The notes under the pieces are model-generated. The model made no database searches. It was not told the DNA's origin and saw only the letters and a program-made list of their open reading frames with translations. A DNA stretch of 58,737 nucleotides, the filler included, from Malassezia furfur (taxonomy: Eukaryota), in NCBI GenBank assembly GCA_052055015.1. It is 3 parts of 3 records of this genome, joined end to end, with 100 filler letters (N's around TTAATTAATTAA, not from the genome) between each part and the next. Parts side by side here need not be neighbours in the genome. Positions count along the whole stretch, not along the records: positions 19,663 to 39,203 come from JBQJIT010000188.1; 2 more parts are not named here. One strand, given 5' to 3'. Within the stretch, counting starts at the first letter, position 1; every line of letters starts with the position of its first letter. A program made the position numbers and the translations under genes. This document shows, one piece after another, positions 13,115-39,063 of the stretch.

Positions 13115-14513
13115 ATGGCCGGATGGGCGCCGCTGCGTGCTGCCGAGTCGTTCCTAGCCGACGCGCCGCACACGCCGGCGCGCGACCGGCCGCTGGCTCC
13201 GCTGTCGCAGCTGCCTGTGCCCGAGTCGATGTCGCAGCGCGCGTCGCAGGCGTCGCCGTACAACTGCCGCGCGCCGACACCGCTGTCGTCGCTGCCCATG
13301 GTACCGGGCGTCGGCTCCGACGAGGAGGAGGTAAGCGACGCCGATACGTGGGGCGACGTCGTCGATGATGTGTACGAGGAGGAAATTGCGCCCATTACAC
13401 GCGCGCGCCTGCGCTTGCGCTCCGGCCTTCCGGCGCTCGACGCATACGCAGGGACCTTGCGCACCGCCGGCGCCTTTGCGACGCACGGTGCCTACGAGCC
13501 CGAGACCGATGACGATGCACTTGGCTTCCCGCTCGGCTCGGCGCTCGAAATCGTGGGGCCTCCAGGCGTCGGCAAGACAACATGGGTGCTCGAGATGGCC
13601 GTGCGCGAACGTCTCGCGCATGTTCTGCACTCGCTCGACCTGGCGCTTGACGAGGTCAGTGCGTCGCCCGCATCCTCGTCGTGCGACACAGATGAATGGC
13701 TTGATGAGAACGTCGCGCCATGGTGTGCACAGGTAGTCCTGGCCGACACAGAGGGGAGCATTGCGTATGCGCGCCTCGCGCAGCTCGCAACGGCCGCGGC
13801 GCGGGACGCCATGGACGCGCCGAGCTGTATACGCTGGCGCACAGCGCTGTCGAGCGCATACACCGTCCAGCATGCGAGTCTTGTGCGGTGCATCCTCCAA
13901 GGGCTCCACGTCGTGCGCCTCACATCGCTAGGCGACCTGCTTGCCTTTCTTGGCGTCGCAGCCGACAGTGTACTCAAAGTGCCCGGCCTACCGCCACGCA
14001 CGTCGCTACTGGTTGTTGACTCGCTGTCTTTCTTGCTAAATACCCACGCTCTCGCGCCAGAGGCGACGCGCGAGCAGCGCCGCGCACGGTCCAATGCGCT
14101 GGCGCTGGCGATCCATGCGCTGACGACACTGCGCGATTTTCACATTCCCGAGCACGATCGGCTCACGGTCATCGTCACTAACCAGATGGCATCACGTATG
14201 CCGGGCGACCGGCGGGCGCAGGCGGGCGTCGAGTCCGTCCTGGTTCCGTCGCTAACGGCCGCACCAACGATGCGCGGCGCATTCGATGCATCCGCGTACG
14301 ACTGGGGGCCGAGTATTCTCGGGCGTAGCGCATGGCGCTTCCTTCTCTTCTATCCCGGCGCGCAAGAGGCGCGGTACGTTGGGCTACTGACCTAGCTTCC
14401 TGGCCATCCAGTCTCGGCCTGATACCCCGAACGCGACCGCCGATGACCATGGCGCTGCGCCGCATCCCTGTATCCCGTTTGTTGTGCAGCCTGCGGCATG
14501 GCACGGTGCATAA
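13115..14513 (+). CDS. Divergent RecA-fold Rad51 paralog (Rad55/RAD51C-like); intron 14374-14395
   Basis: LEIVGPPGVGKT (Walker A), LADTEG, LLVVDSLS (Walker B), VIVTNQM. Confidence 0.7.
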
Positions 14514-15128
14514 TTACAGGTTCTTGTCGAAGCTATCGATCACTGTGTTAGTTGCGCGACGCACAGATCGTGACGGGGCCTGCGTTAGGGCTGTATACAT
14601 ACCATCGTTTACCAACGACACATCCATCATCGCGCCAAAGCGACCATCTGTGTGAGTATTCCGCGTACCCTTGATGCGCTCGGGCGCGTACTGCTCGCCC
14701 AGTCGCGTGAGGAACGCCTCGTAGAACTGCTTCGACGTTTCGCCGCCCATCGCGCGGTGGAAGTCGGGCTTGGTGCCCTTGGCCGTCTTGGCGTACAGCG
14801 TAAACTGCGACACTGCGTGAGCACGCCACGCCACGTACCGCACAGGATCTCGCCGCCCAGCTCCGCCACGTTGGCGCACCACGGCCGCGCGCCCTCGGCG
14901 GGCTGAGAGAGGCGCCCGTCCTCGATACGCGTGCCATCAGGCCAGAGCCGTGTGCCCAGCATCTTCTTGACAAGCACCTGCATCTGCTCAGGCGTATCGT
15001 CGTGGCAGATGCCAATCAGCGCCAGGATGCCCGGCCCAATTTGCGAAACGAGCTCGCCATTGACTGCGTCAGCGCGCGCACGTACCGTGCACTGACGCCT
15101 GCTTCACACGCTGCAACACTGCGCGCAT
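14514..15128 (-). CDS. DTD1: D-aminoacyl-tRNA deacylase; introns 15064-15085, 14813-14838, 14648-14668, 14580-14602, 14543-14564
   Basis: [45 protein letters not shown] after splicing. Confidence 0.93.
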
Positions 15129-17580: not shown

Positions 17581-18172
17581 ATGGGCCTGGGGTCGCGCGA
17601 CGCGTACGTGTTGGTCTGACGCAGGGATGCGGCGCTCGGCACACAGGCACTTGCGATCGCGGTCTCGGTGCTCGCCGTCTTCTTGGCGGTGCGCATCGCG
17701 TACCGCACCATCCGGAGCACGGTCGCACTCGCGTTTTGGCTCGTCAAGTGGGGCGCCATCCTGTACGCCGTGCTTTTGGCCTACCTGTGGTACACCCACG
17801 AGACGCCCACCGCGACGCAGCAGGCACTGGCGGGCGTGAATGCGGTCATCTCAGGTACGTGCTATGGCTGATGTAGCGTCCGCCTCGACGTTTTACGCGC
17901 TCGCACTGCGCACACTCCAGCAGCCCGGCGGGGTCGGCGCCGTGGCCCAGCAGCTTGCGGGCGCCTTTGACGCGCCGCGCACGGCGCCGCGCCGCACACA
18001 GCGCCGCAAGCAGCGCCAGCGCCGCACGGACGATGTGCTCGGCGATCTCGCCGACTCGCTTGGCCTCGGCGACGTCCTGGGCGCCGCCCAGGCTTGGGAC
18101 CCGGCGGCGAACGCCGGGCAGGTCAAGCAGGAGGCGCGCAAAAAGCGCAAGCGCTCGCGGTTCTGGGACTAG
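17581..18172 (+). CDS. Small two-TM membrane protein (possibly Apq12-like); introns 17604-17624 and 17855-17876
   Basis: Spliced frame gives two hydrophobic helices (LAIAVSVLAVFLAVRIAY; LAFWLVKWGAILYAVLLAYLW) and a basic tail. Confidence 0.6.
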
Positions 18173-19456: not shown

Positions 19457-19758
19457 ATGACCTCGACGATGCACACCTCCGGCTCTGGCGCGCAGCGGCG
19501 CGCCTCGAACGCGGGCCATGCCGGCCGCGGGCGCGGCCAGCATGCGCCGCTGGGGCGCTGGANNNNNNNNNNNNNNNNNNNNNNNNNNNNNNNNNNNNNN
19601 NNNNNNTTAATTAATTAANNNNNNNNNNNNNNNNNNNNNNNNNNNNNNNNNNNNNNNNNNNNGCGACCGCGGGCAAGGCGGTGCCGGGCGCGGCGGCCGC
19701 CGCCCAGGGCGCTGCTTCTTCCGCGGCACAGTCTTCTCCACAGACCTCGTTTGCGTAG
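19457..19758 (+). CDS. Possible gene interrupted by the assembly gap (5' and 3' fragments)
   Basis: ATG 19457 opens into the gap; an Ala-rich frame exits the gap and stops at 19758; linkage unproven. Confidence 0.25.
19563..19662. other. Assembly gap with artificial six-frame stop linker
   Basis: N44-TTAATTAATTAA-N44. Confidence 0.97.
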
Positions 19759-19804
19759 CCTGACAGAGACGCGCGAAGTAGATGAACGCGGCTAGTAGTA
19801 CAGA

Positions 19805-20264
19805 TCAAAGCTGGACAGCGGCTACGGTCAAGGCGGCGGCAAGCGCCGTCAACGTCCATTGGATACCGATGGTTACGGCACCACTCCCCACAGTCTGTGT
19901 GAGGCAACGATGCACGACGTACCTGGAGGTTCTTGGGGTCTGGTTCCAAATTGCTCGCGGTCGACCGCAGGTCGACGCTCTTGGCGAGCGACGAGGAAAG
20001 CGCAGGGTTCACGGTCGGCTCGAGCGTCGAGAGCGCCGCCGTGTAGTTCCACGTGTACCCGTCCGGCGTCTGACTCGGGCCGACGCCTGACATGACGATC
20101 ACCGTGCCGCTCTGCCCACTCGGCAGCGTGGAGATGGGTGTATAAGTCTGAGAGGGCGTGTAGTACGAGTTGGTCGGCGACGTGACTGGCGTGTCTTGCG
20201 CTCGCACACATAGCACACATACCAGTGCGGCCATGACCCACATCAAATACGGCGCGGAAACCAT
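19805..20264 (-). CDS. Small secreted Ser/Thr-rich, probably GPI-anchored cell-surface protein; intron 19895-19922
   Basis: Signal peptide MVSAPYLMWVMAALVCVLCVRA-QD, S/T-rich body; splicing yields the hydrophobic tail GSGAVTIGIQWTLTALAAALTVAAVQL*. Confidence 0.75.
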
Positions 20265-20412
20265 GCTCGACAAAGTACTCTGCAAATTAACGTCGTAGTC
20301 GGTAGGTAGCACGGCGTGATGTAGTCCACAATTTCTGCACCGTACCCCACAAAAGCGCGTCGAAATAATTGCACATCTACAACTTGCCCTCTATCGTACA
20401 TTCTTGCCATGC

Positions 20413-22192
20413 TCACTGCCAGGAGCTGCCCACGCTCACGCTCTCGGCACCCGCATTGTAGCTGAATCCCGAGAATTGTTCCTGGTTTGCGGCGCTGATC
20501 AGATGGCTCTCGTCCACCACGCTGTCTTGGGCAGGCTCGCTCGTAAACTCCGGGTCGAAGTTGGACGTGTCCAACGTCGATTGCACCCCCGGCTTGTACG
20601 GCGGCTGCACTTTTTTCGCGAGGAGCAGCGCCCAGTCGATATGCTTGGTAAAGAACGGATGGCTTTTGATCTCGGCAGCGCCATGGGGTCCGTAGCCGAG
20701 CCGCTCGCTTGCCTCGCGGTGCAACAGACGCGTGAGCAAATCGCGCGCGTCCGGTTGGACCTCGGGAGGGAACGTGAGCGGATCGTGGAGAATTTTGCGG
20801 TACATCTCGCTGACATCCTCTGAGTAGAATGGCGGGAGGCCAGTGAGCATCTCGTAGAGCAGCACTCCGAGCGTCCACCAGTCAACCGACTTGGTGTAAC
20901 CGCGGCCCAACAGCAGTTCCGGCGCAAGGTACTCGGGCGTGCCACAGAAGGTATGCGTCGTCTCTTTATCGCCCATGTTCAGCTTACACAGGCCGAAATC
21001 GCACAGGGCAATGTGTCCAGTGTAGTCGAGCAGGATGTTTTCTGGCTTCAGGTCGCGGTAGATCACGTTGAAGTCGTGCAGATGCTCGAGTGCACAGAAG
21101 AGCTCAGCAGTGTAGAAGCGCGCACGCTCTTCGCTGAAATGCCCCTCGGCCTGGAGGTGGTGAAAGAGCTCGCCACCGTTGACAAACGCGAGGCCAAGGT
21201 ATAGCTTGTCGGGGCTCTGGAAGGAAAACTTGAGCGGCACAATGAACGGGCTGTTGACCTGGGCGAGCACTGTGCGCTCGGCCAGGGTGTGCGTCACCTC
21301 GGAGCGCGAGATGATGTGTGCCTTGCGGATGATTTTCAGTGCGTAGATCCGGTTCGTGTCGCGCTTGCGAACCTGCATCACCTTACCGAAGCTGCCTTTA
21401 CCGATGACCTTGAGCAGCTCAAACGACTCGATCGACAGCGAGCGGCCCTGTTGCGGCTTGAATGCGAGCTGCACATGAATCTGGCCTGTACCGCCCGAAA
21501 TCGGCAGCCAGGTGTCCATGGCACGCGCGCTTTCGAATGACGGCACCAGTTTCGCCGTTCCCAGATATACATCGTTCTCGCCCATCAGGTCCCGCATCGG
21601 CTTGCGTTGTCCCCCCTGCTGGTCCTCGGCCTTGGGCGTCGAGCTGCGGAACATGCCCATGATACCGAAACTCGTCGCGGCGGCCGGTGCGACAGCCTCT
21701 CCGCGGAGATAGACGTGCAGACTCACTTCGGTCTTGCGCGAGATGTCGCTGCGTCAGCCATGGCACGTACAAGTAGGCGGTGAACTGCCACTGCGGCGCC
21801 GATAGGTCGCCGCTCGATGCAAGAATCAGCACCTCGTTTTTGTCGAATTCCAGCACCACGTAAGGCAGGAAGGTTTGGCGCTCGCGCAGTGACTTGCTCT
21901 GTAGTGCATCGCCCGATTTGTCCGCAAGCACCTTGCCAGAGGGAAGCGACAAGCCACGCGCGGTCACGACGCTCACCGCAAGCAGGTCCGATTGCGTAGT
22001 ATCGCCGCCCGCAGCCCGGGCAGGCTTCGGCGGCGAGGCCTCCTTCGTGCTCGGTGCAGGGGCGGTGGGTTTCGGCGTCGCGGAGCGGTCGACGGGCGAG
22101 GGGACTCTCGGAGGCCCGAAGGCAAAGCTCGAGCTCTCGCGCAATTCTGCATAAGTGCTTCCCCACATACTCTTGCCCAGTCTCCACGACAT
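20413..22192 (-). CDS. YPK1: AGC kinase Ypk1/Gad8; introns 22147-22170 and 21749-21770
   Basis: MSWRLGKKLRE, C2-like YVVLEFDKNE, GKGSFGKV, TFCGTPEYLAPE, hydrophobic motif FSGFSY. Confidence 0.93.
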
Positions 22193-22298
22193 GGCGGCGG
22201 CGGTGAGACCGTGGCCGTGCCTGAGGGTCAACCGGCACGCTTTGTCAGCACCTGCACGTCCGTGCCGAATGCCGTGCAAATTTTGCGCCTGCACCACG

Positions 22299-22979
22299 AT
22301 GGACGAGCTGGACGCCTCGGCCGTGCGTGGGAAGATCACCCTGCTTCCGGGGCACGACGCTGCGCTCACCGCCGTCACATTCTGTATCCGGGACGAAGAT
22401 CATACACTCGGCAATGCACTGCGGTACATGCTAATGAAAGAGTACGTCGACCCCGGCCCCGAAGATTATACCCATTGTGTCCCGAGACCTGCTTTGCAAG
22501 TGTCATGGGGGAATACAAACTTGGAATTCTTCGTTTCTGAGGGGATTATCACACCAAGAGCACGCTAACGGCAGTCCGCGCGTGGAATTTTGCGGCTATA
22601 CGTAGGTTGCCGCCGCCGCTCACACGCAGCATTCCCCATCCGTCCGAGAGCAAAATCCACATGCGCGTTCAGATGAATGGTGAGTGTCTCGGCCAATTGG
22701 TATTGGGATGACACCTTTCCGAAGCCGAGCTACGGCGATGGACTGGCAGTTATACGCATTTCCAATTGTTCCTACTGAATTCTCCTCGCGTCTGGGAACA
22801 GGCTAACCGCAGAGCACACCGTGTCGGCGGTCGACGCGTTCCGCGACGCCATCGCGAATCTCGACCAGGTGTTTGCCTCAATTCGTGAACGCTACGATGC
22901 GAGCCTTGCATCTGATGATGTGAAGAAGGAGCCAGCGGCAGTCTCGTCGGCGCCGCGGCGGGCCGAGTTCTCGGGTTAA
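22299..22979 (+). CDS. RPC19: RNA polymerase I/III subunit AC19; introns 22442-22574 (133 nt), 22602-22629 (28 nt), 22680-22812 (133 nt)
   Basis: [45 protein letters not shown] after splicing. Confidence 0.93.
22451..22544 (+). ncRNA. Intronic box C/D snoRNA, snR57-like (18S Gm1572 guide)
   Basis: CCCC...GGGG flanks, variant C box (CC)GAAGA 22459-22465, D box CTGA 22537-22540; guide GGAATTCTTCGTT pairs with 18S AACGAGGAATTCC (one G-U), D+5 rule hits the G. Confidence 0.65.
22701..22782 (+). ncRNA. Intronic box C/D snoRNA, snR41/SNORD62-like (18S Am541 guide)
   Basis: C box GGGATGA 22705-22711, D' CCGA 22725-22728, C'-like GCGATGG, D box CTGA 22775-22778; guide TCCAATTGTTCCT is 13/13 complementary to 18S AGGAACAATTGGA. 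Confidence 0.75.
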
Positions 22980-22991
22980 TGTATTCTAGTT

Positions 22992-24232
22992 TCACGAAAT
23001 GGTAGCAACAACTGCGTAAGCCTCGCAACGACCACCCACTTTTGCCCGTGTCTGTGTGAGTGAGTGTGCGACGTACTCTTGTTCGCCTGCATCGCGTCGT
23101 GCGCCTTGGCAATGTCGTTCCAGTCAAACGTGTCCCACACGACCAGGCGCGTGCCTTCGTCGTGGGTCTCCACACCACGCACGATCGAGTCCAGGCCGCC
23201 GCTGTGGAAAAAGTCCTGCACCAGCTTCGACTGGTACTCCAGCGAGCGGCTCCGCAGCGTACTGCCCTCGATGCGCAGGCGCTTCGTCAGGAGCGGGCCC
23301 AGATTCACCTCCTTGACCTTGGCGCCGCCCATAAAGCCCTGCATGGTCAGACGCCCGTCGCGTTTCAGCGACGCCAAGTTGTCCTCAAAGTACGGCGCGC
23401 CGACGAAATCCATAATGACGTCCACGCCCTCGCCATTTGTCGCCTCCATCAGCTTGTCCTTCCAGCTGCCTTCTTTGTAGTTGAATCCGTCCGTGGCACC
23501 GAGCTGCTTGCAGAACGCAATCTTCTCCGGCGACCCGGCGGTGACGTAGATGCGACGCGCACCCTCCGCCTTAGCGAGCTGGATGGCCGCAAGACCCACA
23601 CCGGACGCGCCCGCGTGTACAAGTAGATCCTCACCCGCCTTGAACGAGCCCAGCACGCGGAGTGCCTGGAACGCGGTCAAGAATGCTGCCGTTAGCAGGT
23701 GTCACGCACCTTCGGGCATACTCGCGGCTTGCACCCAGCTGATTGCCTCGGGCTTCTTGAGTACCATCTCCTCGGGAACGCGGATGTACTCGGCATAGGC
23801 ACCGCCGGTGGCGAGACCAAACACGGGGTCCCCAACGGCCAGGTGCTGGACGCCCTGACCGACATCGACGACGTTCCCGCTGAACTCGACACCCAGGATC
23901 GGGCTTGCGCCAGGCGGGATGGGGTACTTGCCCTCGCGCTGGAGCAGGTCCATGCGGTTCAGGCCGAACGCCTTCACTTGCACCAGCACGCTCTTGGGCG
24001 TGTCGGTGAGCTTGGGGGTGGGCGCCTCGCCAATGTACAGCGCACTCGAGGGGCCGACTTTGTCGCGGATCAGCACCGCGCGCATACTCTCAGGGACAGT
24101 CATCTGGGCAAATGTACGCCGCGAGACGGATGATGCGAGATAGTTTACGGTAGGTCGCACGCTACGGTATACGAGCCCACGGAACATCGGAGTTAGCATT
24201 CGGGGTCGCCCACGGAACATCGGAGTTAGCAT
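22992..24232 (-). CDS. NADPH:quinone oxidoreductase (PIG3/zeta-crystallin-like MDR); introns 23686-23709, 23052-23076, 23012-23039; alternative start 24103
   Basis: AFGLNRMDLLQREGKYP, ILGVEFSG, LVHAGASGVG, IEGSTLRSR, ends NTGKIVATIS* after splicing. Confidence 0.9.
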
Positions 24233-24241
24233 TCGGGGTCG
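24176..24241. repeat. Perfect 33-bp tandem duplication
   Basis: cccacggaacatcggagttagcattcggggtcg at 24176-24208 and 24209-24241. Confidence 0.95.
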
Positions 24242-24260
24242 TGCATCGCTGAGTAAAAGC

Positions 24261-25998
24261 TCACTAAGGGTCAGTGCGCGCTCACGTACCGTAATCACCG
24301 TGGGCTTCGAGCGGCCCGTAAACTTCTCCAGTTCGCTGAGCTGGAGTGCGACATTAATGAGAGGCATGAGCGCCTTTTGCACATCCTCCTTGTACTCCGC
24401 AGGATCCTGCGTGTACTTTTCAACATAGAGACGGATCGTCGCGCCAGCACTGCCCGTGCCGCTCAGGCGGAAGATGACACGCGAGCCATCGTTGAACAGC
24501 ACATACAGGCCCTGATTCTTGCTCACGCTCTTGTCGATGGGGTCCGTGTAGCTGAAGTCGTCGGCCTCGGCCACCGTGAAGTCGCCGAGCTTGCTGCCAA
24601 CAAAGTTGGGCTCGGCGAAGCGCGCACGAAGGTGCTCCATCATCTTCTTGGCACCATCGCTGTCGACCTCTTCGTAATCGTAACGGCTGAAGAAGTTACG
24701 GCCGTACTTGGTGTAGTGTGCGTTCAACACGTCACCCACACTAGTGCCAGGCTTCTCCTTGTTGGCCGCGGCCATGATGCTGAGCCACGCTGCGTCAGAA
24801 AATGCGTCACGTACCGACCACCGCCCAGAGACCGTCCTTTTCACGGATGTGGTCCGAGCCTGTACCAAACGACTCCTCACCGCAGATCGACAGGCGACCG
24901 GCATCCATGAGGTTGCCGAAGAACTTCCAGCCGGTCGGCACCTCGAACACCTCGTAGTTGCGCGCCTTGGCGACACGGTCGATCGCACCGCTCGTCGGCA
25001 TGCTGCGGGCCAACCCGTGGATGCCGCCCTGGGCAAAGTAGGGGATCGCCTTCTGCGCCCAGTCCGCGATGATCGCGACACTGTCGCTCGGGTTCACGAA
25101 TGCGTTCTTGCCCAGAATCATGTTGCGGTCACCGTCGCCATCGCTCGCGGCGCCGAAGCTGAGCCCTTCCTTCTCCACGGCATCAACCAGCGTCTTGGCG
25201 TACGTAAGGTTCGGGTCGGGGTGCGCGCCACCAAAGTCGGGCAGCGGCACGCAGTTTTGCACCGCCGACTCGTCCAGGCCGAAGCGCTCGACAAACAGGG
25301 CCTTGGCATACGGGCCCGTCACACCGTTCAGGCCGTCGAAGCGCACCGTAAACGAGCCGGACGACAAAAAGTCGCGGATCATGTTGAAGTCGAAGATCTT
25401 GGCGAGGTACTCGACATAATCCTTCACCGAGTCGATCACTTCCACCTCCATCGAGCCAAACGTGCTCGTGCCAATCTTGGACAGGTCGACGTCGGAGCCC
25501 TCGACCACTTTGTACTCCTTGATCTGAGTGGTCAGCTTGTAAATTTCGTTCGTGACCGCTTCGGGAGCAGGACCGCCATTGCTCATGTTGTACTTGATGC
25601 CGAAGTCGGCATCCGGGCCACCCGGGTTGTGACTCGCCGTGAGCAAAATACCACCCGTAGCCTTGTTCAGACGGATGATGTGCGAGGCGGCCGGCGTCGA
25701 AAGGATGCCGTTCTGGCCGATGATCAGCTTCTTCACCCCGTTCGCGGCCGAGATGCGGATGATCTTCTGCACCGCCGGCTTGGAGAAATAGCGTCCGTCA
25801 CCGCCCACGACCAGCGTCGCACCCTTCGCGCCGCCCGGAATGGCATCCAGGATACACTGCACAAAGTTCTCCGTGTAATTCTCCTGCTCAAAGACCTTGA
25901 CACTGGGATGAGTATAGCACGTACCGCTTGCGCAGTCCCGAGGTACCCGGCTTCTGGCCTTCGAAGGGCTTCGTCGGAATCGTCTGTGCTGTCGCCAT
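24261..25998 (-). CDS. PGM2: Phosphoglucomutase; introns 25903-25924, 24790-24814, 24264-24289
   Basis: GQKPGTSGLRKRV, TASHNPGG, DGDGDR, CGEESFG, RLSGTGS, ends PTVIT*. Confidence 0.96.
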
Positions 25999-26068
25999 CG
26001 TGTCTCGAGGAAGGCTCCACAAGCCCCAGGCACGTGCCCTAGGGTAGCCTGCGTTGCTGTGGAGCAGC

Positions 26069-26922
26069 ATGGAGAAGAAACGACGCGGGGCGGACGCGTC
26101 GCACAAGCCAGCCAGGGAATGCAGCCTGCCCGGGCACAAGCCGCACATGCCGTTCTCATCCATTGCGGCATTCGAGGCTCATTACTATACCGAGCATACC
26201 TTTCGTTGCAACGCCTTGCTGCCGTTCCATTCACACGACTCCACGCAGTCAAGCTCCCGTTTCTCCGACGAACGCGCGCAAAGATGTGGAAAGACGTTTC
26301 CAAATGAACATCTACTTGCTCTGCATATGGAAGAGTGCCATAGCAGTCTTACGGCACAACGTCGCGAGCGTGGAGAGAAAGTGGTACGTTCTCTCAGCTG
26401 ACACAGTTTGGTTGCTTTGAACCACAATGCGACCGCATGTTTGCGACACCGAAGCTTCGCCGACAGCATCTGATTGCCGCACACCACTACCCACCAGAGT
26501 TCTTCTTCAGCGTGACTAACCACGGGATTGGACGGCTCCGCGAGCTCTACGGAGATGGCGCGAGTCTTGTACGCAAGACTTGGCGGCGTAGGCCTTCCAT
26601 GGGCGACCCCCATGACGCCCCAAAGCCAAGGCACAAAGATGTGCCACACATGCAGGTCGATGACCAGAGTACGACAACGAACTCTAGATCCCGTGATGTC
26701 AGCGCTACCGCACCGCCAGAGCACTGTCAAGCAGCACCAGCAGCTTCTAAGCCGCCGACAACCTCAGCTCTGACAAGAAAGCGAAGTCTGGACTCTCTGT
26801 CCAGCGCAGAAGAAGAGCTCCCTTGCGCTTCGCCCAAGACGGACACACCTGCCCTGCAAGACGTGCTCGAGCAAATGAGCGTCTTGTCGCTTGTTCCGCG
26901 CAGTGTCCGCAAACAATCATGA
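26069..26922 (+). CDS. C2H2 zinc-finger protein (ZNF511-like); intron 26384-26406
   Basis: FEAHYYTEH, CGKTFPNEHLLALHMEECH, FGCFEPQCDRMFATPKLRRQHLIAAHHYP. Confidence 0.75.
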
Positions 26923-26929
26923 TATACCC

Positions 26930-27955
26930 CTATGTACCAAAACCGGCCCACGCCAAGCTCCAGTACTCGACATTGCCCCATAGGGGAGCCGGCGCCGTAT
27001 CGGTCGCATCATCATAGCCTGCCAAACGCTGCTCAAGCGCCACAGTATCATCCAGTGTCACCGTGTTGGCCTGGCACAACAAATGCGACTTCTTCACCGC
27101 CGTACCCAAGCGGCCCGAGGCGACGACATGGTAGGCGGCCATAGGCTGCTGCGGCGTCGCAAGGATAGTGGCAGTATAGTGCGAGTGGTATCTTAGCGGG
27201 TCTCCAGGGTACACCACAAAGTCACCGCCAAAACGCAGCCCGGTGCTCAGGAAGTATCCCTTGCTGTGCAGCGCTTCGAACGTGGCACAGCGCGCGCGCT
27301 CTTGCAACGTGCTGGGGTACGACCACACACCAGCCGCTTGTGCAGACTGTAGCGTGATGTACGCATTGGTATGTTCTGGCTGCATGTCAGAGGTGGCCGG
27401 ATGGTAGCCCGGCATCTCGGCGGACGTATTGGGGGTATGGTGGACATAGCCCATCTTTGCCATGAGGTCTTCTTGCGACGGCGGTGCCTCTTGCTCTACT
27501 TTGGCACCCTTGGCCTCTTTCGCTGCTTGGCGTGCCCGGCGTCGTTCAAGTGCCTTGGCGTCTCCCGCCTCCTGCGTGAGCGCAGCCTCAATCCGCTGCC
27601 GGTGCTCTTCTTGTTGTTGGAACTGCTGTTCCTTCTGAGCCAGGATCTGTTGTGCCTCATTTTCAAGGAACTGTGCACGCTCGTCCTCTCTGGGAACCTC
27701 GTAAGCGTCCTTGTCGCTAATCAACACTGCAGCTCTCCGCCTCAGCAACAGGACCACCTCTTCTGGAAGGAGACGAAGCGGCAGGCCCAAGAACACATTT
27801 TGCTGAGGAATCAGCGGCAGGGTACCGCTCAATAGGCCACACAGATTGTGCTGTGTTCTAACGAATTCCACATCTCTCGCTTCCCAGAGGTAGGGCACCC
27901 CGTTGGCGAGCAGAATCGGTACCCGGTCCGGATACGCTTTTCGCAGCTCGTCCAT
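26930..27955 (-). CDS. SEN34: tRNA-splicing endonuclease subunit Sen34
   Basis: QQNVFLGLPLRLLPEE, GLRFGGDFVVYPGDPLRYHSHY, GRLGTAVKK. Confidence 0.93.
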   Translation of the reverse strand: MDELRKAYPDRVPILLANGVPYLWEARDVEFVRTQHNLCGLLSGTLPLIPQQNVFLGLPLRLLPEEVVLLLRRRAAVLISDKDAYEVPREDERAQFLENEAQQILAQKEQQFQQQEEHRQRIEAALTQEAGDAKALERRRARQAAKEAKGAKVEQEAPPSQEDLMAKMGYVHHTPNTSAEMPGYHPATSDMQPEHTNAYITLQSAQAAGVWSYPSTLQERARCATFEALHSKGYFLSTGLRFGGDFVVYPGDPLRYHSHYTATILATPQQPMAAYHVVASGRLGTAVKKSHLLCQANTVTLDDTVALEQRLAGYDDATDTAPAPLWGNVEYWSLAWAGFGT

Positions 27956-27979
27956 AAGGTGGAGGCCCGCGCTAGAAGT

Positions 27980-30607
27980 CTACTGTCGGAAGTACTGGGC
28001 CATATTGTGGAGCCGATCGAACATGGACGAGATGTACGATGTCTCGTTGAAGAGGGCCTCGAAGTTCATCACGGCCTTCTCTTCGCTGACATCCAGCATA
28101 AACTTCTCCTGGATCTTGAGCACGGCTTTATCAGGTTCGGACCGGATATCCGGAATATTGGCATCGACCATGAGAGAGACCAGGTTCAGAATGAGGTTGG
28201 CATTCTTGCGAAGACACGCATACGCGGTGTTGCACAATTTCTTGAATCGTGCATAGTACACAGAGTTGGCACCTCCCATGCCATCGACCATCTCTTTGCA
28301 GATCTTAACAGGAGGCGGGAAGGGCTTCGGATCTCTGCCCAAGATGTAGCCAAAGTCCACATGGAAGAAATGCCCGTCGGGCGAAAGCAGCAGGTTGTCC
28401 AGGTGTCGGTCGCCCACGCCGAGCAGGTAGGTGATGACACAGTAGCCTGCACAGCTTCGGACAAAGGTGTCCAGCACCGAGCTTTGGACAAAGTAGGTCG
28501 CGGCGCTGTTCTTGTCAGGGTAATTTGCGCGCAAATACTCGAGCAAACTGCCGTTGTAACTCGTCATAATCGCAGCAATCGTCATGCTTTGGATGTACTG
28601 TACCATCCCATCTGATGGGCTCGTCGCCAGCACACGGTATGGCGTAATTTTCAGATCGAGGTTCTCGTTGCGGAGGAGTCGATCCATTAACGCAAACAGC
28701 TGAATCACCAGCTGGTCCTGCCGGAGGTCGTCTCCATCTTTGCAAATGATGGTGTAGGCCGAGCCGCTTTTGGCGTCGTCCTCGGGTACTTCAGTGCGGA
28801 ACTCATCCACCTCAAACTCAATGCGCAGGGGGAAGAGATTGCTTTTGAACACGGTGCTGTTCTCCGGTATCGTTTTGACGACCGACACCTGCGGATCCAA
28901 GGGCAGCGAAAGCGCAGGATGGAACGTATGTAAGCCCCCTTTTTTATCCGCAAGAAGGGTACGCAACTTCTCGATCTTCTTGGGCCGCGCATCACGCGAG
29001 AGGCGCAGCTGTTTGCACCGTGCCGAAAGCACTTCGACAAACTGGGTTTGACGTGCCAGCATCTCCTCCAACGGCGCATTCGTATTTAGCAAGCGAGTAT
29101 GCAGGGCATCTAGAACCCGTTTGAACAGAGATCCATACGTTGCATCTTCGCATTCCACTCGGACGTACCAGAAGAACATGGTTCCCAGGCAATTGTTCGA
29201 CGCACTGCGCATGCACAAAAGGTCGACCAGCTTCGAGCCATCAACTAGTGCATCCGTGTCGGTGTCCTCCGGTCGCCGATGGCGCCGGGCCTGGTTCCAT
29301 GCCACCTCGTCAAACTTGATGGCTTGCACAAGCTGCAGGAGGTACAGCTCAAGCTCCTCGTCGCTCGTCCGTTCCAAGAGGCGCACCGCATAGGCACGCA
29401 CGCGCAGGTCTCGGAACCAGGGCCCGAGAAGCTCAAGTGCGTCTGAAAGTTCGGGTTCGGCCCACATTGGTAGCAAGACATCCGTAGCTTGTCGCGTCTC
29501 GTCCGGGTCACTCCACACGACCGACTTGAGGAATTTCGTGAGCCCCTTGGGGTAGCGCGTGAGATGGAAACGGAAGGACCAGATCAAATCCTTCTCTGCC
29601 GACGTGAGTTTGCGCGTAGATGGGTATACAAGGATATCGTTCAACTCGTCGCGCACACTGGCCGTGGGTTTCCGCTCACGGTCAAGGAGGTTGGAGCGCT
29701 GGGATCGCACAAGTCGGCGGTGCTTTGCCTCAATGATGTTTTCCTTGTCACCCTCCGGGTCGTAGATGGTGAACAAGGAAGCGTCCACGGTCCGACACGG
29801 CCCAGCCGTGGCAGGCGTGGTCTTTACCGGTGGCTCCTCCTCCATTTCAGGCTCGGGCTCGGCAAATACCACAGGCAAATCAAAATTGGGCATCTCGACC
29901 GTTAGTAGGAGTCCTTCGGCCTGGTTGACCTCGCTTTCGTGCACTTGTTCAATCGCTCGGAAGGCGAGCTTGTCGAGCCAGTCAACATGGGGCATCGTAC
30001 GCCGCTGGTGCTGCTTAACGAGTTTCTCGAGCCGCAATGACTCTGTCTCGGGCCCCTGCTGGTGCGGTGTGGACGATGGAAGGTGGGTGTCACCCACGAC
30101 ATTGGGCCAAACGTGCAGGCGTTGCTGTCCTCGTCGGAGTGACCTACGTCAGGGGTGCTGCGTACCCTTTCCTGCCAAAAAGTGGCAATGTAGTTCCGCC
30201 AACAATGGTCTCCCCATGCGATGAATCGGGTTCCAGTAGCGTAAACACCAAGATGGCCGTAGGCGGGAGATTGGCAATCTCAAAGGGCATTTGCATCCAT
30301 TCGTCCCATTCCATGTCCGGTTTCGGAGCCTTGTACGACGTGCGCTTTGGAAGTGTCAGTGGCTTGTTATCCGCATAAAGCTGGCACTGCACACAGATCG
30401 GCGGCACCTTGGCGGAATCGCTGGCGCCTTTTGCTGCCAAGGTGTGGCCGTGTTCTCTCTGCGAGGGGCCCGCAGCCTGGGGGTCTGCGCTGCTGGGGCA
30501 TTTGCCTTCTAGACGAGATCTGCGTGAGATAAAATGACGCACATTTGAAAACACACGTCCCTGTGCACGTCATACGACGCCACGAAGGAATAGAAATCAC
30601 CATCCAT
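27980..30607 (-). CDS. VPS34: Class III phosphatidylinositol 3-kinase; introns 30520-30542 and 30144-30165
   Basis: C2 domain, PIK helical domain (LYLLQLVQAIKF), KDGDDLRQDQL, GVGDRHLDN, DFGYILGRDPKPF. Confidence 0.96.
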
Positions 30608-30729
30608 CCCAGCAGGAACGCACGGCGCGGGGTTGGAAACGAGATGCCCTCCACTTGGCGCTGCATGCAGCCTTATGCATAGGAGAACGTGCACTGCGCA
30701 CGAATTGCTTCTTTTCCTTACGCGCTACC

Positions 30730-32350
30730 ATGGGAATGGGATTGTCTGTCTTGCTGCCGCGCCCGACGAGGGAAGAGTGGAACACCATGGGGTACCTGTT
30801 TATCGGTACCCTGGCTGTATGCTACTACATTTCGCTGTTTGCCTGGCGCTTGGCACTGCGGGATACCAACGTCCAGAAGCGCATGCGCATCTTGCGTGAC
30901 TTGGGTGTGCGCGAGCCGCGAAGGTACATGTTCGTGGGGTTTTTCCATCCATTCTGGTATGTTGCACGTCTAACCTAGCCATGCGGGCGGTGGTGGTGAG
31001 CGTGTGCTTTTCGAGGCAATCCGCGTGCATCAGCAAGACCCCAATGTGATCTGTGTGGTATACACAGGTGATATCAAGCCTCTTCCTAATGGCGTGACCA
31101 AAGAAGAGATTCTTTCCAAGGCAGAGGAGCGGTTTGGGATCAAGTTGCGCCCTGAAGCCGTTGCGTTCCTTCCGCTGAAGAACCGCCATTTGGTCGAGGG
31201 TTCCTACTGGAGACATTTCACGTTGCTTGGCCAAGCGTTCGGTGCGAACCGTCTGGGCTATGCCGCGATGAGTGAGCTGGTACCAGACGTATTTATTGAC
31301 ACCATGGGATACGCATTTGCTCTGAGTGCCCCCAAGAACTACTCCAAAAAGATCCGTGTGGGTGCCTACGTGCATTATCCGACGATCAGTACCGATATGC
31401 TGCAGCGCGTGCGAAGCCGCAAGGCGGGCATTACAAACTCGTCGTGGATTGCTTCCAGTCTTCCCTTGAGCTGCCTGAAGCTCATCTACTACCACTTCTT
31501 TGCAGCGGTGTATGGCGCTGCGCTTCGTAACGCTGATGTGATCGTAACCAACGGTACCTGGACCAAGAACCACATCCAGACCCTGGTGCAGTGCAAAATC
31601 TGGCGGCCTTGGAAGGTGCACATCCCGGACGTGAACATTGTGTATCCCCCGTGCAACACCGAAAAGTTTGCGAAACTCTCACTCGAAAACCGCCAGGCGC
31701 GACAGATTGTGAGTTTGGCGCAGTTCCGTCCGGAAAAAGACCATGCTCTTCAGCTTCGTATGGTCCGTCAGCTGCTCGACGAGCACAAGGAGCTCAAGAC
31801 GTCATCGGGCACGAGCCGCGCGCTGAAACTTGTGCTCATCGGTGGTTGCCGCAACAAGGAGGACGAGGAACGTGTTGCTAGCCTCAAGTCGCTGGCCAAG
31901 GAGCTCATTATTGAAAACCACATCGAGTGGTGTATCAATGCGCCACTCAGCACGGTCATTGATAAACTAGGCAAGGCAAGCGTTGGGCTCAGCACGATGG
32001 TGGACGAACATTTCGGAATCAATGTCGTCGAATACATGGCGTCAGGGCTAATGGCGCTGTCGCACGCATCCGCCGGCCCCTTGCTGGATATTTCAGTGCC
32101 TGTGGACGGTCAACCGACTGGCTTCCACGCCAAGGACCTTGACGAATACGTGTCACAGGCGTACAAGCTGCTCACCATGCCCCCTTCTGAGGCGCTAGCA
32201 GTTCGCGAGCGGGCGCGGAAGCACGTGCAGACGACGTTCAGCGATGCCACCTTTGACCAGACCTGGAAGACGCAGCTTTGGGACAAGCTCGTGCCTCCGG
32301 CGCTACTTGCTGTCAACGAGGCTGCAAAGCAATCGACCTCGACTCAATGA
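30730..32350 (+). CDS. ALG11: Alpha-1,2-mannosyltransferase Alg11; intron 30957-30978
   Basis: GFFHPFCHAGGGGERVL, PDVFIDTMGY, YVHYPTIS, AQFRPEKDH, EHFGINVVEY. Confidence 0.94.
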
Positions 32351-32431
32351 GGGCAGATACATGCAGGCTGCGGCACTGGTGTTGATCGTGCCGGCAATTG
32401 TCGTCCTGTGCAAGCAATTCTGGTGATTTTT

Positions 32432-33404
32432 CTACGAAATTTCGATGCTCTTTGGCGCGCCAAGCATCTCCTTGATCTGGTCGTAGATCAAGAACTGGCC
32501 ACTCACCAGGATGGCCGTCATGAAAATCCTTGTACCCAATCCGGCCCACAGACCCATGAAGCTCGTCTGCTTCGCCGCGCGGATCAGCTTGGCCATGGGC
32601 GAACCCTCGCCGACATTGCCGCGGTTGATCTTGGAAAGGAGCGTATCGGCCGGATGCGAAAGAATGGCAGCCGCCGCACCCGCCGTAATACCACAACCCA
32701 GCTGGATCGTCAGCTGGCCTGTCTTGCCCCACGACGCTTGCTTTTCCTTGGAGATGCTGGCATTCACAAAGTTGTGGCACATCTCGTTCGTGTAGAATTG
32801 GCCGATCGCGTAAGGCACCTGCTTGAAAAGGATGGGGATGTAACCTGCGTAGAAGCCCGAGATACCCTCCTCGCGGCCCATACGGGTCATTGCGCCAACC
32901 ATGCCGCGCGCATAGCCGCGCTGGGACACCAGCCGAATGCGCGCAGCTTCCAGGGGCGTTAGCAGTGTGGTCGCAATCACCTCGGCAGCGCTCGCTGAGC
33001 CGAGATACACAAGCTGGCGGTACTCGCTCGCCTTCTGCTTGCTTCCCAGCGCATCAATAAGGTGCTTCTTGAAAAATTCTGGCGTGAGCTGTAGGCGACG
33101 TACCGTAACCGCAGAACTTCGCACCACCCTGGATCAAGTAACCCACAGCAGTCGGGCCGAAACCTGCCAGAAGACCCGTGGGGCCGTCGCTTTTAACGAT
33201 CGACCGCGCCATGCTCATCATGGTCTCCTTGCTGCCCGTCGGCTCCAGCTGCAGGCGCGTCTTCACCACATCAATCGGCGTGAGAGAACCGTGCGTGATT
33301 GTCGCGCACAAGCCACCGGCAGCCAGAAACTGACCATAGTTGAGTAACGTGAAGTCGGGGGTCAGTTGGCCCGGTGCAAGGGTACTTTTGACCTGGTTGC
33401 TCAT
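32432..33404 (-). CDS. Mitochondrial phosphate carrier (MIR1/PIC family); intron 33079-33103
   Basis: TPIDVVKTRLQ, QGGAKFCGYEFFK, PLEAARIRLV, HPADTLLSKIN. Confidence 0.9.
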
Positions 33405-33686
33405 AGTGGTGGTAGAAAGAGGTGGATCGTCGTTCAGGGCGGCGCGAGGGCTACGTTAATCTGCACTTGACGGACTTATCCCGAAAATGTGGCCCAAGCG
33501 GTACGAACGGGCCCCGGCGCATCGGGCGCGGCAGCCCGATGCACAGCAACGGGAATTTCGGACGTTTGTGCAACGCCCACGGCGGAGAACAACGCACGAT
33601 ACAGAGGTTGCGGCACAGGCTTCGCCCTTCGTTGGTGCACGTTGAATTGAGTGCTATGTTTGCATAGTGATTGTATAAAACACTGC

Positions 33687-34632
33687 TTAGATACGGCCGG
33701 CCTCCTTGAGCTTCGAAATAAGCTCGTCGACGTTTTCGACCTGTCATTAGCCTTCTGCGAAACCATGTGCCACGTACCTTGGCACCACCCTGCCGCTTCG
33801 GCGGCTCGGACACCTTCTCGGTCGTAAGCCGCGGCTGGATCTCCTTCTCAAGACCGAGGTCCGCCACAGTCATCTTCTTGAGAGGCTTCTTCTTCGCCTT
33901 CATGATGTTGGGCAGCGAAGCGTAGCGAGGTTCTGTGGATGAGTGGGAATAACGTACCGTTCAGACGCAGATCCGTAGTGATCACCATCGGGATGGTGCT
34001 GTCCACGACCGCGAGACCACCATCGACCTCACGCGTCACCTGCACCTTGTCGCCCTCGTTGCCCTTGCCCTCAAGCTGAACCTTCGAGGCGAACGTAGCC
34101 TGCGGCCAGTTGAGGAGACCAGCAAGCATCTGGCCCGTCTGCGACGCATCGTCGTCGATGGCCTGCTTACCGAGGATCACAAGGCCGATCTTGTTGTCGC
34201 CTTCCTCCTTCTCGATGATCGTCTTGAGGATCTTCGAGACGGCGAGCGGCTCAAGAGGGCCCGAAAGCGACTTGTCGGGGATGTCCACGTGGATCGCATC
34301 ATCAGCGCCCATCGCCAGAGCCGTACGGAGCACGTCCTGCGACTTGGCGGGACCAGCCGAAACGACAGTCTTGGGTTAGCTTACACACACACGTACGATC
34401 TTGTCAACAACGCCCTTGTGGCGCTCACGCAGACGCACAGCCTCCTCAACCGCAATCTCGTCGAAGGGGTTCATCGAGTGCTGCACGTTCGTGTCAACAC
34501 CCTTGCCGTCCGAAGCAACGCGGATCTTGACCGCTGGAGTGTTAGATGCCTTTCATACATGTACGTACCATAGTCAATGGTGCGCTTGATCGGGACAAGC
34601 ACACGCAGCTGGTTCACAAGAGAAGCACGCAT
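33687..34632 (-). CDS. ETFB: Electron transfer flavoprotein beta subunit; introns 34534-34568, 34370-34396, 33933-33957, 33741-33777
   Basis: [57 protein letters not shown]. Confidence 0.94.
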
Positions 34633-34787
34633 TCTGGCGGGGAATAAGAAGTGGTTCGCGTCGAAGCCTCGTGGCACCGGTGCGGAGCAATCCGGGGGAG
34701 CCGTCTTCTGCCCCGGTCCGGTCCCTCCACACCTGCGAGATGCGATCACCACGTGGTAGCTGCAGCAACGGTCTTCGCAACGCGGCC

Positions 34788-36980
34788 ATGCCAGAGTCTG
34801 TGCGCACGCCTGCAGCGCCGGATGCCCGCCAGGTGCAAGCGTGGCATACGCGCCTGCGCGAGTTACTAGATGCTGAGCGGCAGGAGGAGCGGGAACAGAG
34901 CGCTCTGCTACTCTCACAAACCCCCCCGCGTTTATTGGAACGCAATGGTCTTGCCTTGCTCGGTCTCTATGCGAGCGCCGTGCGAGTTGGCCAAGGAGCA
35001 AAATTGCTCGTGGACCTAGAACGGTCTTCCGCGCTGCACACACAAACCCAATTTCCTCCGCATACCTTCCGGACGGGTGACGTGGTTGTATTGGAGGAGA
35101 ATGGGGAGCCCAAAAAGGGCGCCAAAAAGGCCAAAGGGGACCAGGGCGTCGTCTTCCGTGTGAACGATACCCAAATTACCGTGGCTATGGATGGTGGCGG
35201 AAAAGACGAGAAGGATGACGCAGGAACAAACCTGGATCTGCCACCCACCTTGCGTCTGGTGAAGCTCGTAAACGAAGTCACGTACGACCGCATGGAACAA
35301 TCGCTCACGAGGCTGGGCAGCCTTGTTGGCCTGGTCGATGGTGCTGGCTCACTGGAAAGCGCACCCCCTGTCATCCGAACGCTGCTGGGCCTTGCACCTC
35401 CGACCTGGTTCAAGGATCCTGTCTCATGGACACCGATCAATACGCGCTTCAACGAGGCACAACGCGCTGCCATTGACTTTGCAATGCGTGCAAATCAAGT
35501 CGCACTAATCCATGGCCCCCCGGGGACAGGGAAAACGACTGTGATTGCCGAGATCATTGTGCAGCTCGCACAAGCAGATCCCAAGGCGCGTATCCTGGTG
35601 TGTGGTGCGAGCAACCTCGCCGTGGACAACCTGTTAGAACGTACATTGATGACGCCGGGGTACAAGGAAGCGCTACAGGCGGCCGATGCACGTGTGACGC
35701 GCATTGGCCACCCCGCGCGTGTTATGGCGAGTCTGAGTGGCGCGACGCTGGACGTGCAAACGACACTGTCGTCTGAGGGACAGCTCTTGCGCGAGGTGGC
35801 TGCGGAGATCGACCAGCTCATGTCCATTCTCTCGCCGCGGTCCAATGCGCCGCGTGCGGGCAACAAGAGTGCGCGCACGGCGCCGCGGCCCAAAGGTGCC
35901 GAGCGCCGGAAGCTGTGGGAGCAGGTGCGCGAGCTGCGCAATGAGTATCGCAAGCGGGAGCGGTCGCTCACTACAACGGTGCTGCAGCGCGCACGCATCG
36001 TGATGGCGACCTGTCATGGTGCAGGCAGTCGGCAGCTCCAGACGACCAGTTTTGACTACGTGATCATTGACGAGGCGTGCCAGGCGCTGGAACCGACGTG
36101 CTGGACAGCCATCTTGAAGCTAGCGCCTCAGGGCCGTCTGCTTTTGGCAGGAGATCACTTGCAGCTGCCCCCCACGGTGAAAGCGACCAAGACATTCAAG
36201 GAGGGTGACAAGTCAGCTACGCTGCGCCTGCCCAACACCTTAGAGAAGACACTGTTTGATCGCATGTTGTACATGTACGGAGATGGATGCAAGGCGCTCT
36301 TGGATACCCAATACCGCATGAACGAAGAGATTATGGCCTATCCGAACGAGGCGCTCTACAACTCACGCCTGCGCGCCGACGAGAGCTGCCGCACGATTCG
36401 ATTGTACGACCTGGAGTCTGTCGAGAAGCCCGAGGAGGCAGATGACGAACTGTGGACGGCGCCGCTTGTATTTTACGACACGACGGGGACGGGCATGTGG
36501 GAAAAGATGGCCGACGAAGACTTGCAGGGCTCCACCCTGCAAGCGACGTCGCGCTGCAATGAAAACGAGGCGGTGTTGGTCGAGCGGCACATACGTCTCT
36601 TGATGGAGCACGGCGTGCCCATGAATGACATTGCGGTGCTATCGCCGTATGCCTCGCAGATCGACCTGCTCAGCACACAGTTGCGCAACTCACTAGGCTC
36701 CGAAATGGAGATCGGCACAGTCGACGGCATGCAGGGTCGTGAAAAAGAGGTGGTGATTATCAGCCTCGTGCGCTCCAACGAAGAACACGACGTGGGATTC
36801 CTGAATGAACGGAGGCGCCTCAATGTGGCCATGACGCGTGCCAAACGCCAGCTAGTCGTGGTTGGCGACGCGGAGACGATCGCTGGAAGCTCTCAGGACC
36901 AGTCCAAGCCGCGTGTCTACCTGCGCGAGTGGATCGAGCATCTGCACTCGCATGCGCTGGTGGAAATGAATCCAACCTAA
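34788..36980 (+). CDS. HCS1: SF1 helicase Hcs1/IGHMBP2
   Basis: [57 protein letters not shown]. Confidence 0.88.
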
Positions 36981-37049
36981 TGTCTAGGAACAGTGTTTCA
37001 GTAGGTAGCGACGGAATATGATACAAGTCGCGCACTGACGTGGCTTTCT

Positions 37050-37700: not shown

Positions 37701-37816
37701 GGTTATAGCCTCTTGTGGAGAGGCCGGGCTGTTCGACGACACGCTGACCAAGCCCTGATTTCGGCCGGAAGACGCTTGTAATCCCCCGCATCCGCGTGCA
37801 GCTTCGTGGATCGGCC

Positions 37817-39055: not shown

Positions 39056-39063
39056 GTACACTA

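Follow-up and report, generated by a model that had tools for sequence, protein, structure and literature searches.

Two Long Introns of RPC19 in Malassezia furfur Very Probably Host Small Nucleolar RNAs of the Box C/D Class at a Short Distance From the Branch Point

The RPC19 locus of Malassezia furfur raises the question of why a gene should keep two introns of exactly 133 nucleotides (nt) in a stretch of DNA whose ordinary introns mostly measure 21–26 nt. The stretch, hereafter the window, is 58,737 nt long, filler included, and consists of three parts of three records of the assembly GCA_052055015.1 joined end to end; positions 19,663–39,203, which include RPC19, come from JBQJIT010000188.1. 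The answer developed here is that RPC19, which encodes a subunit shared by RNA polymerases (Pol) I and III, is very probably the host of two intronic small nucleolar RNAs (snoRNAs) of the box C/D class in this compact, GC-rich (rich in guanine and cytosine), yeast-like fungus, and that their spacing to the branch point appears to sit at a shared floor or preferred value. Judged by their boxes and guides, both RNAs are very probably functional snoRNAs. The gene model is as follows.

22299–22979, plus strand: RPAC2/RPC19 (AC19) gene, four exons and three introns, ATG at 22299
22299–22441, 22575–22601, 22630–22679, and 22813–22979, plus strand: RPC19 exons, jointly 128 codons and a stop
22442–22574, plus strand: intron 1, 133 nt, GTACGT...CTAAC (branch A at 22568)...CAG
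22602–22629, plus strand: intron 2, 28 nt, without a snoRNA
22680–22812, plus strand: intron 3, 133 nt, GTGAGT...CTAAC (branch A at 22806)...CAG

Direct reading and a script agree on intron lengths of 133, 28, and 133 nt, and splicing them out leaves a single open frame of 128 codons. The identity of the host was examined with exons 1 and 4 searched as separate pieces. Exon 1 (47 amino acids) matches the Pfam family RNA_pol_L_2 at 32.7 bits against a cut-off of 27, and its matches in the PDB are the RPAC2 chains of Schizosaccharomyces pombe (7aoc_K, E 1e-11), human, and Saccharomyces cerevisiae, together with one unrelated weak match; no Rpb11 chain was matched by exon 1 at E ≤ 0.01, and exon 4 (54 amino acids) gave no Pfam match. 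Because exon 1 matches RNA_pol_L_2 and, among subunits of this kind, RPAC2 chains only, the gene is, on these sequence matches, that of the shared Pol I/III subunit RPC19/RPAC2 (AC19), with an Rpb11-like dimerisation domain that comes closest to the AC19 subunits of Pol I/III. The host named in a preliminary description of this DNA is thereby borne out.

The features of the first RNA, located in intron 1, are the following.

22457–22544, plus strand: snoRNA 1, predicted snR57-type box C/D RNA, 88 nt
22457–22460 and 22541–22544, plus strand: terminal stem, CCCC and GGGG
22462–22468, plus strand: C box AAGATTA
22482–22485, plus strand: D′ candidate CCGA
22505–22512, plus strand: C′ candidate ATGGGGGA
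22519–22536, plus strand: D guide
22537–22540, plus strand: D box CTGA

When intron 1 was scanned alone, its sole Rfam match was snosnR57 (RF00474), which spanned the full model (1–95) at 16.2 bits and E 5.6. The stem CCCC/GGGG, the C box GAUUAUA, and the guide GGAAUUCUUCGUUU equal the snosnR57 consensus exactly, and a C box of the UGAUUA type is the norm of the snR57 family according to that consensus. The guide, i.e., the 18 nt before the D box, forms 17 of 18 possible pairs (16 Watson–Crick and one G–U) with 18S AAACGAGGAATTCCTAGT; the duplex lies on 18S AAACGAGGAATTCC, with the fifth guide nucleotide facing the G of AAACG, and it is found in all eight eukaryotic 18S loci among the metagenome matches listed. 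In S. cerevisiae, snR57 guides 18S Gm1572 (PMC8307265, table), and the D guide of snoRNA 1 would direct 2′-O-methylation of the equivalent 18S G. The likeness to yeast snR57 thus comprises the guide, the C box, and the order C–D′–C′–guide–D, with a length of 88 nt against the 95-nt model, whereas the D box reads CUGA in the window and AUGA in yeast and in three relatives. When RPC19-type snoRNA 1 was aligned with its yeast-type and cluster-type homologues, only the C′ region and the guide could be aligned reliably. The boxes and the stem are kept in four genomes; the terminal stem (4–5 base pairs, bp) is 90% paired in the four sequences versus 30–65% with a slid partner, and one of its pairs reads CG, CG, GC, and UA, a compensatory pattern that is only suggestive, given 51 of 500 in the shuffle control and n = 4.

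The second RNA occupies intron 3.

Approximately 22700–22783 (approximate ends), plus strand: snoRNA 2, predicted snR41-I/U62-type box C/D RNA
22705–22711, plus strand: C box GGGATGA
22719–22722 or 22725–22728, plus strand: D′ candidates CCGA
22736–22742, plus strand: C′ candidate CGATGGA
22751–22757, plus strand: conserved TATACGC
22759–22773, plus strand: D guide
22775–22778, plus strand: D box CTGA

The top Rfam match in intron 3 was snR41 (RF01218) at 18.2 bits and E 0.81, and CCAAUUGUUCC.ACUGA equals the snR41 consensus exactly. Since the Rfam alignment forces the two-guide layout of yeast on this RNA, the C box was placed instead at GGGATGA, a stretch that does not vary among the orthologues. 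The guide can pair over 15 contiguous positions with 18S AGGAACAATTGGAGG, immediately 5′ of the 530-loop sequence, and its fifth nucleotide faces the first A after GAGG; the target GAGGAACAATTGG is present in 29 of 29 eukaryotic 18S loci found inside prokaryote assemblies. Across three genomes, neither the C box nor the guide nor the D box varies. Read from these elements, snoRNA 2 would be a single-guide RNA whose D guide directs methylation of 18S at the A that corresponds to Am541 of yeast. The guide CCAAUUGUUCC is shared with the consensus of yeast snR41, but the latter carries the Am541 guide at D′ and a second guide for Gm1126 (PMC8307265). No conserved D′ complementarity to proxies of 18S or large-subunit (LSU) ribosomal RNA (rRNA) was found in snoRNA 2 for such a second guide; only 34 nt follow its D box, and there is no room for a second guide of the yeast type. 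The closest described form is the CD13/snR41-I/U62 group of short, single-guide, intronic RNAs with the guide 5′ of the D box: CD13 of Neurospora crassa is tabulated as an 84-nt, single-guide, intron-encoded RNA whose D-box guide targets Am538, and the table treats it as the counterpart of S. pombe snR41-I and human U62A/B (SNORD62) (PMC2780460, table). A further element, (A/U)UAUACGC, adjoins the 5′ side of the Am541 guide and is kept in all three snoRNA 2 orthologues (window, L087, and L018, the latter two being metagenome loci introduced below). The element complements GCGUAUAU of 18S, a site found 54 nt downstream from the target A and nowhere else in the 18S locus L109, and may provide accessory base-pairing that aids the guide; an LSU proxy match of the same element was taken as chance.

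The two RNAs have several lines of evidence in common. Stretches of 14 nt (snoRNA 1) and 15 nt (snoRNA 2) complementary to rRNA, each longer than the usual minimum of 10 nt, lie directly 5′ of CTGA, and both guides follow the fifth-nucleotide rule at known methylation sites. Each RNA has a C box and a CUGA D box, the C boxes departing from RUGAUGA at one or two positions, and these departures are kept in orthologues. The predicted target nucleotides lie 1030 nt apart in L109, and yeast 18S A541 (snR41) and G1572 (snR57) lie 1031 nt apart (PMC8307265, table). When the window was scanned for rRNA-antisense stretches beside NTGA with an exact-seed index, which is unable to detect snoRNA 1, snoRNA 2 was the only long duplex with an upstream C box. 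The earlier proposal, in which each of the long introns houses a box C/D snoRNA of a named family, is upheld by the top Rfam matches to snosnR57 and snR41 and by guides that fall on the expected 18S sites.

Conservation of the arrangement was examined by scanning metagenomes with a pattern made of the snR57 guide and D box, which yielded at least 106 loci. Among the matches listed, eight were 18S ribosomal DNA (rDNA), two were yeast-type snR57, and four (L018, L087, L083, and L065) passed a filter for a C box, a D box, and a downstream branch point and acceptor; the remaining matches listed were chance-like, in unrelated and, by eye, mostly coding-looking sequence. In L018, L087, and L083, which are orthologues of RPC19, the snR57-type RNA occupies the corresponding intron, after ...LRYMLMKE, and exon-1 protein identity is 71–81% for L018 and L087. 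In these two, an snR41-type RNA lies in the same later intron (after ...RVQML), whereas the sequence of L083 ends just past the snR41-type C box; the orthologous intron 2 measures 27, 27, and 43 nt. The snR41-type RNA was absent from the search pattern, and its presence in the orthologues is therefore independent evidence. The invariant columns of both intron alignments are splice signals, boxes, and guides, and the tails have diverged. As read from these alignments, the dual-snoRNA RPC19 host is conserved in at least four genomes, i.e., the window and three metagenome contigs of related fungi, and the conservation anticipated for boxes and guides holds in all three contigs, partially for snoRNA 2 in L083. 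L018 (reverse complement, approximately 1283–1312) and L087 (approximately 99–123) additionally show, by eye, an extra ultra-short intron of approximately 30 and 25 nt, respectively, within what is exon 1 of the window; it was either lost by the window gene or gained by L018 and L087.

The fourth locus differs in its host.

L065, 971–1582, minus strand: snoRNA host of a fungus with 42% GC, four consecutive introns of 115–128 nt

Its introns contain box C/D RNAs of the snR57 type (the first), of the SNORD33 type, and, twice, of the snR61 type, and its flanking exons look noncoding by eye. SNORD33 (the U33 family) is taken here to be the snR55 family. Published work describes an snR57–snR55–snR61 cluster whose RNAs lie within introns of a noncoding host in Basidiomycota, Euascomycetes, and Zygomycota (PMC3596301). 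Since L065 matches this published cluster, the location of snR57 in RPC19 is most simply read as a relocation in the lineage of the window; probably it is one, in the direction presumed here. Most fungi, in that account and in L065, keep snR57 in an intron of a noncoding host rather than in RPC19 intron 1, and the S. cerevisiae copy belongs to a snR57–snR55–snR61 polycistron, unlike snoRNA 1 in its protein-coding intron (PMC3596301). The hosts published there for snR41 are those of the snR41–snR70–snR51 cluster and not RPC19. The pairing of the two RNAs in one gene, which had been put forward as distinct from known arrangements, indeed differs from both of these fungal clusters.

How far the two introns stand apart can be seen from a census of the window, in which branch and acceptor motifs were paired with a GT[AG]NGT donor at most 400 nt away; it is based on motifs and not on complementary DNA. 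Among 33 motifs, 23 give introns of 21–26 nt, four give 31–49 nt, and two are the 133-nt RPC19 introns; the four other pairings, of 146–386 nt, were set aside as chance-like and lie inside coding-looking sequence. Strict-motif introns of at most 45 nt number 26, where 30 shuffles average 1.4 and never exceed 7. The ordinary introns are stereotyped, with GTACGT, a few bases, CTGAC or CTAAC, and then 5 nt to the AG; in most introns of the window the branch A precedes the intron end by 5 nt, and in introns 1 and 3 by 6 nt. Accordingly, RPC19 introns 1 and 3 are the sole credible long introns in the census, in agreement with the statement that they are the only ones in the window. Because ordinary introns measure 21–26 nt, the extra length of the snoRNA introns is no general requirement of the spliceosome. 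PMC13644364 regards introns below 30 nt as a rarity except in ciliates, microsporidia, and a handful of animals, and a review attributes very short introns to Malassezia genes. Examples in the window are as follows.

2039–2059, 17604–17624, 41364–41384, and 44828–44850, plus strand: ordinary introns
15064–15085, 21749–21770, 24790–24814, and 56011–56032, minus strand: ordinary introns

Measured from the end of the D box, both long introns have 34 nt to the intron end and 28 nt to the second A of CTAAC, and these distances, like the two lengths of 133 nt, proved exact on direct reading and by script. The 34 and the 28 nt are one measurement, because the distance from branch A to the 3′ splice site is nearly constant (5–6 nt) across window introns, and the equal totals are sums of unequal parts (20+79+34 versus 25+74+34). 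In register, introns 1 and 3 are identical at 50 of 133 positions, against 33.6 ± 5.2 in 300 shuffles; 18 of the 50 matches, counted from the match line, belong to the 5′ splice site, the D box, the branch motif, and the 3′ splice site; outside these signals, 32 of 115 positions match, which is close to chance. That the two are otherwise unrelated was thus essentially right, and their origin as duplicates of each other is ruled out, since similarity beyond the shared signals is at the chance level. The geometry of the introns is given below in nt, in the order distance from the 5′ splice site to the C box / span of C and D boxes inclusive / distance from D-box end to branch A / distance from that A to the intron end; the last value is omitted for L065.

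Window, intron 1: 20/79/28/6
L087, intron 1: 23/74/30/8
L018, intron 1: 36/73/47/9
L083, intron 1: 48/76/82/13
Window, intron 3: 25/74/28/6
L087, intron 3: 26/74/29/6
L018, intron 3: 25/76/30/7
L065, four introns: 19/63/30, 20/70/31, 19/62/27, and 18/62/27

The distance from D box to branch point is 27–31 nt in nine of the eleven snoRNA introns, from five genomes, and below 27 nt in none; the distance from 5′ splice site to C box is 18–26 nt in nine of eleven. Since the four introns of the noncoding cluster in L065 also have 27–31 nt, the spacing from D box to branch point is not special to RPC19. A fixed spacing, as the preliminary description had suggested, does not survive comparison with the orthologues, which have 30 and 29 nt in introns 1 and 3 of L087, 47 and 30 nt in those of L018, and 82 nt in L083. 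The interval of approximately 27–31 nt looks like a floor or a preferred spacing, not an exact ruler, and the chances that it is functionally constrained are about even.

Several observations weigh against this reading of the locus. The Rfam check gave the expected family as the sole match (intron 1) or the top match (intron 3), but neither score approaches the gathering score of 50 bits: snoRNA 1 misses that of snR57 with 16.2 bits and snoRNA 2 that of snR41 with 18.2 bits. Rfam at gathering gave no match in the window, and at E ≤ 10 no snoRNA match in the whole window; in the orthologues L087 and L083, no snR57 or snR41 match was obtained at E ≤ 10. The assignment to snoRNA families consequently rests on guides and boxes and not on Rfam scores, and the Rfam snR57 model presumably derives mainly from Saccharomycetes-type sequences. 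The 18S, 5.8S, and LSU targets are proxies from other eukaryotes and not rRNA of M. furfur, and nine fungal-looking 18S loci read GGAATCCC or GGAATGCC at the snR57 target, which leaves only 10 contiguous pairs. Conservation of the snoRNA 1 guide among the matches holds by construction, because the guide was itself the search pattern. No conserved D′ target was found for either snoRNA in the 18S, 5.8S, or LSU proxies; the D′ guide CCTTTCCGAAG forms 11 bp with one 18S proxy and the D′ guide GAGACCTGCTTTG 13 bp with another proxy, neither is kept in orthologues, and both were rejected as chance. The terminal stem of snoRNA 2 is weak (2–3 bp, by eye from the alignment), and intron folding energies are no different from those of shuffles (z 0.47 and −0.99). 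As for the geometry, branch points are motif predictions, and the eleven introns come from five genomes, the orthologous ones not being independent.

Intronic snoRNAs are generally produced by the binding of core proteins to the C/D kink-turn, splicing, debranching, and exonuclease trimming. By this route, core proteins of the small nucleolar ribonucleoprotein (snoRNP) would assemble on the C/D kink-turn in the RPC19 precursor transcript or in the excised intron and, after splicing and debranching, exonucleases would trim the intron to the protected snoRNP, so that one RPC19 transcript would supply both the messenger RNA of the Pol I/III subunit and two guides for 18S methylation. On the same footing, snoRNP assembly may be coupled to splicing, and the synthesis of rRNA may be linked with its methylation, as the preliminary description proposed. 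The analysis shows the gene model, the boxes, the complementarity of the guides, the conservation, and the spacing statistics; expression, methylation, the route of processing, and what sets the spacing are inferred. The snoRNA introns are approximately 5–6 times as long as the usual 21–26 nt because each holds the C-to-D core (74–79 nt), a 5′ spacer (approximately 20–25 nt), and the distance from D box to branch point (approximately 28 nt). The identical values of 34 and 28 nt in the two window introns would then mean that both sit at one common minimum, or favoured distance, of approximately 27–31 nt, which is plausible room for the U2 small nuclear ribonucleoprotein (snRNP) upstream of the branch point beside a bulky snoRNP. 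Spacers of 27–31 and 18–26 nt may mark how close a snoRNP and a spliceosome can come to each other within one short intron, and genomes with minimal introns may delete everything beyond these spacers and the snoRNA. Extended to minimal-intron fungi in general, this becomes a tentative proposal, possible rather than likely, of one blueprint: 18–26 nt from 5′ splice site to C box, the snoRNA, 27–31 nt from D box to branch point (the footprint of the U2 snRNP), and 5–9 nt to the 3′ splice site. If it were true, the snoRNP would assemble touching the early spliceosome, at approximately half the mammalian optimum, and such genomes would reveal the true minimal geometry for splicing-coupled assembly of box C/D snoRNPs. 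For mammals, a review puts the optimum upstream of the branch point by approximately 50 nt and assigns the coupling to Aquarius/IBP160 (PMC8162545), and a later survey places most expressed human snoRNAs at least 100 nt from the branch point (PMC10234308). As in mammals, each intron holds one snoRNA, which lies upstream of the branch point by a short, apparently constrained distance; unlike in mammals, the mode in the window and its relatives is 27–31 nt from the D box, approximately half of the 50-nt optimum.

The alternative that survives best concerns the spacers alone and holds that they have no role in snoRNP assembly: common ancestry and a deletion bias would have shortened them to an unrelated limit, e.g., because splice signals must be kept outside the snoRNA structure. 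The extreme intron reduction to 21–26 nt speaks for such a bias, the tails of the window and L087 still have GAACAGGCT in common and are thus not independent, and two of the seven orthologous introns tolerate 47 and 82 nt. On the other side, the unrelated noncoding host in a fungus with 42% GC (L065) has 27–31 nt in four of four introns, the tails have diverged in sequence and through indels, yet their length stays within 3 nt, and none of the eleven introns falls below 27 nt, although ordinary introns need only approximately 10 nt from the 5′ splice site to the branch motif. This explanation may well be entertained, but it falls short of being likely. An exact molecular ruler, in which the intron is set to 133 nt and the D box must lie precisely 28 nt before branch A and 34 nt before the 3′ splice site, would account for the shared 34, 28, and 133 nt of the window introns and for the tight cluster of 27–31 nt in the relatives. 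It is very improbable: the orthologous introns have 29, 30, 30, 47, and 82 nt and total lengths of 135–219 nt, which already contradict it for the relatives; the two totals of 133 nt are made of unequal parts; and 34 and 28 nt amount to one observation where the distance from branch point to 3′ splice site hardly varies. An exact fixed spacing was rejected on the values of L018 and L083.

Two further explanations concern the RNAs themselves. They could be decaying relics of snR57 and snR41, with functional copies elsewhere, for instance in the usual noncoding clusters; the non-canonical C boxes (AAGATTA and GGGATGA), the low Rfam scores, and the weak terminal stem of snoRNA 2 would fit, and within this genome the search covered the window. 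Nevertheless, boxes, guides, and stem are kept in three to four diverged genomes while their flanks have diverged, the UGAUUA-type C box is the norm of the snR57 family, and useless inserts of 100 nt would be expected to be lost where introns shrink to 21–26 nt, which makes decay very improbable. An accidental resemblance to snoRNAs, with the length of the introns owed to something else, for example the regulation of RPC19 splicing, is scarcely credible: weak Rfam E-values (5.6 and 0.81) would suit it, but the rRNA-complementary stretches of 14 and 15 nt abut CTGA and follow the fifth-nucleotide rule at known sites, both guides recur in orthologous introns, and snoRNA 2 is the sole site in the window with a long duplex and an upstream C box in the antisense scan.

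The reading of RPC19 as a dual snoRNA host can be set beside known systems. That genes related to the ribosome carry box C/D snoRNAs in their introns is textbook knowledge. Intron-poor fungi, Ustilaginomycotina among them, are described as retaining the snoRNA introns of RPL7 (snR39/59) and NOG2 (snR191) (PMC8476143), and the likeness is that a gene of ribosome biogenesis keeps an intron for a snoRNA, with protein and guide co-expressed (PMC8476143); RPC19 differs as a host and in carrying two snoRNAs in one gene. In that study of intron-poor fungi (PMC8476143), RPC19 is mentioned nowhere, and no report of RPC19 as a snoRNA host was found in the literature searched, the supplements of a paper on the fungal snoRNAome, which possibly list these families for Ustilaginomycotina, lying outside that search. 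Apparently undescribed, therefore, are a Pol I/III subunit gene as host, two guides of separate clusters in one gene, and the conservation of this arrangement in at least four genomes.

Some observations lie beside this argument. The start codon of RPC19 is, by eye, approximately 105 nt (22194–22298) from the apparent start of a divergent minus-strand gene, which suggests a compact promoter region common to both. The whole-window Rfam search at E ≤ 10 returned only a COG2908 RNA at 13813–13852 (plus strand; 22.2 bits versus a gathering score of 58.7, E 0.19), which is most likely a chance match, because COG2908 is a bacterial cis-regulatory family and the sequence is GC-rich and eukaryotic. 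Among the metagenome loci, at least 29 contigs filed under bacterial genomes (L107–L135; many of Streptomyces, Nocardia, and similar) are eukaryotic 18S rDNA, presumably contamination, and a 24-kb contig of a metagenome-assembled genome, to which L136 (G001:C4:11800-16800) belongs, has three rDNA repeats and a group I intron in its LSU gene.

For the biology of these fungi, RPC19 would be a clean example of the relocation of snoRNAs between hosts, and it would show why a few long introns survive where all others have been reduced to 21–26 nt. Furthermore, the spacing of 27–31 nt in nine of eleven introns from five genomes provides a testable hypothesis on how near a snoRNP may lie to the branch point.

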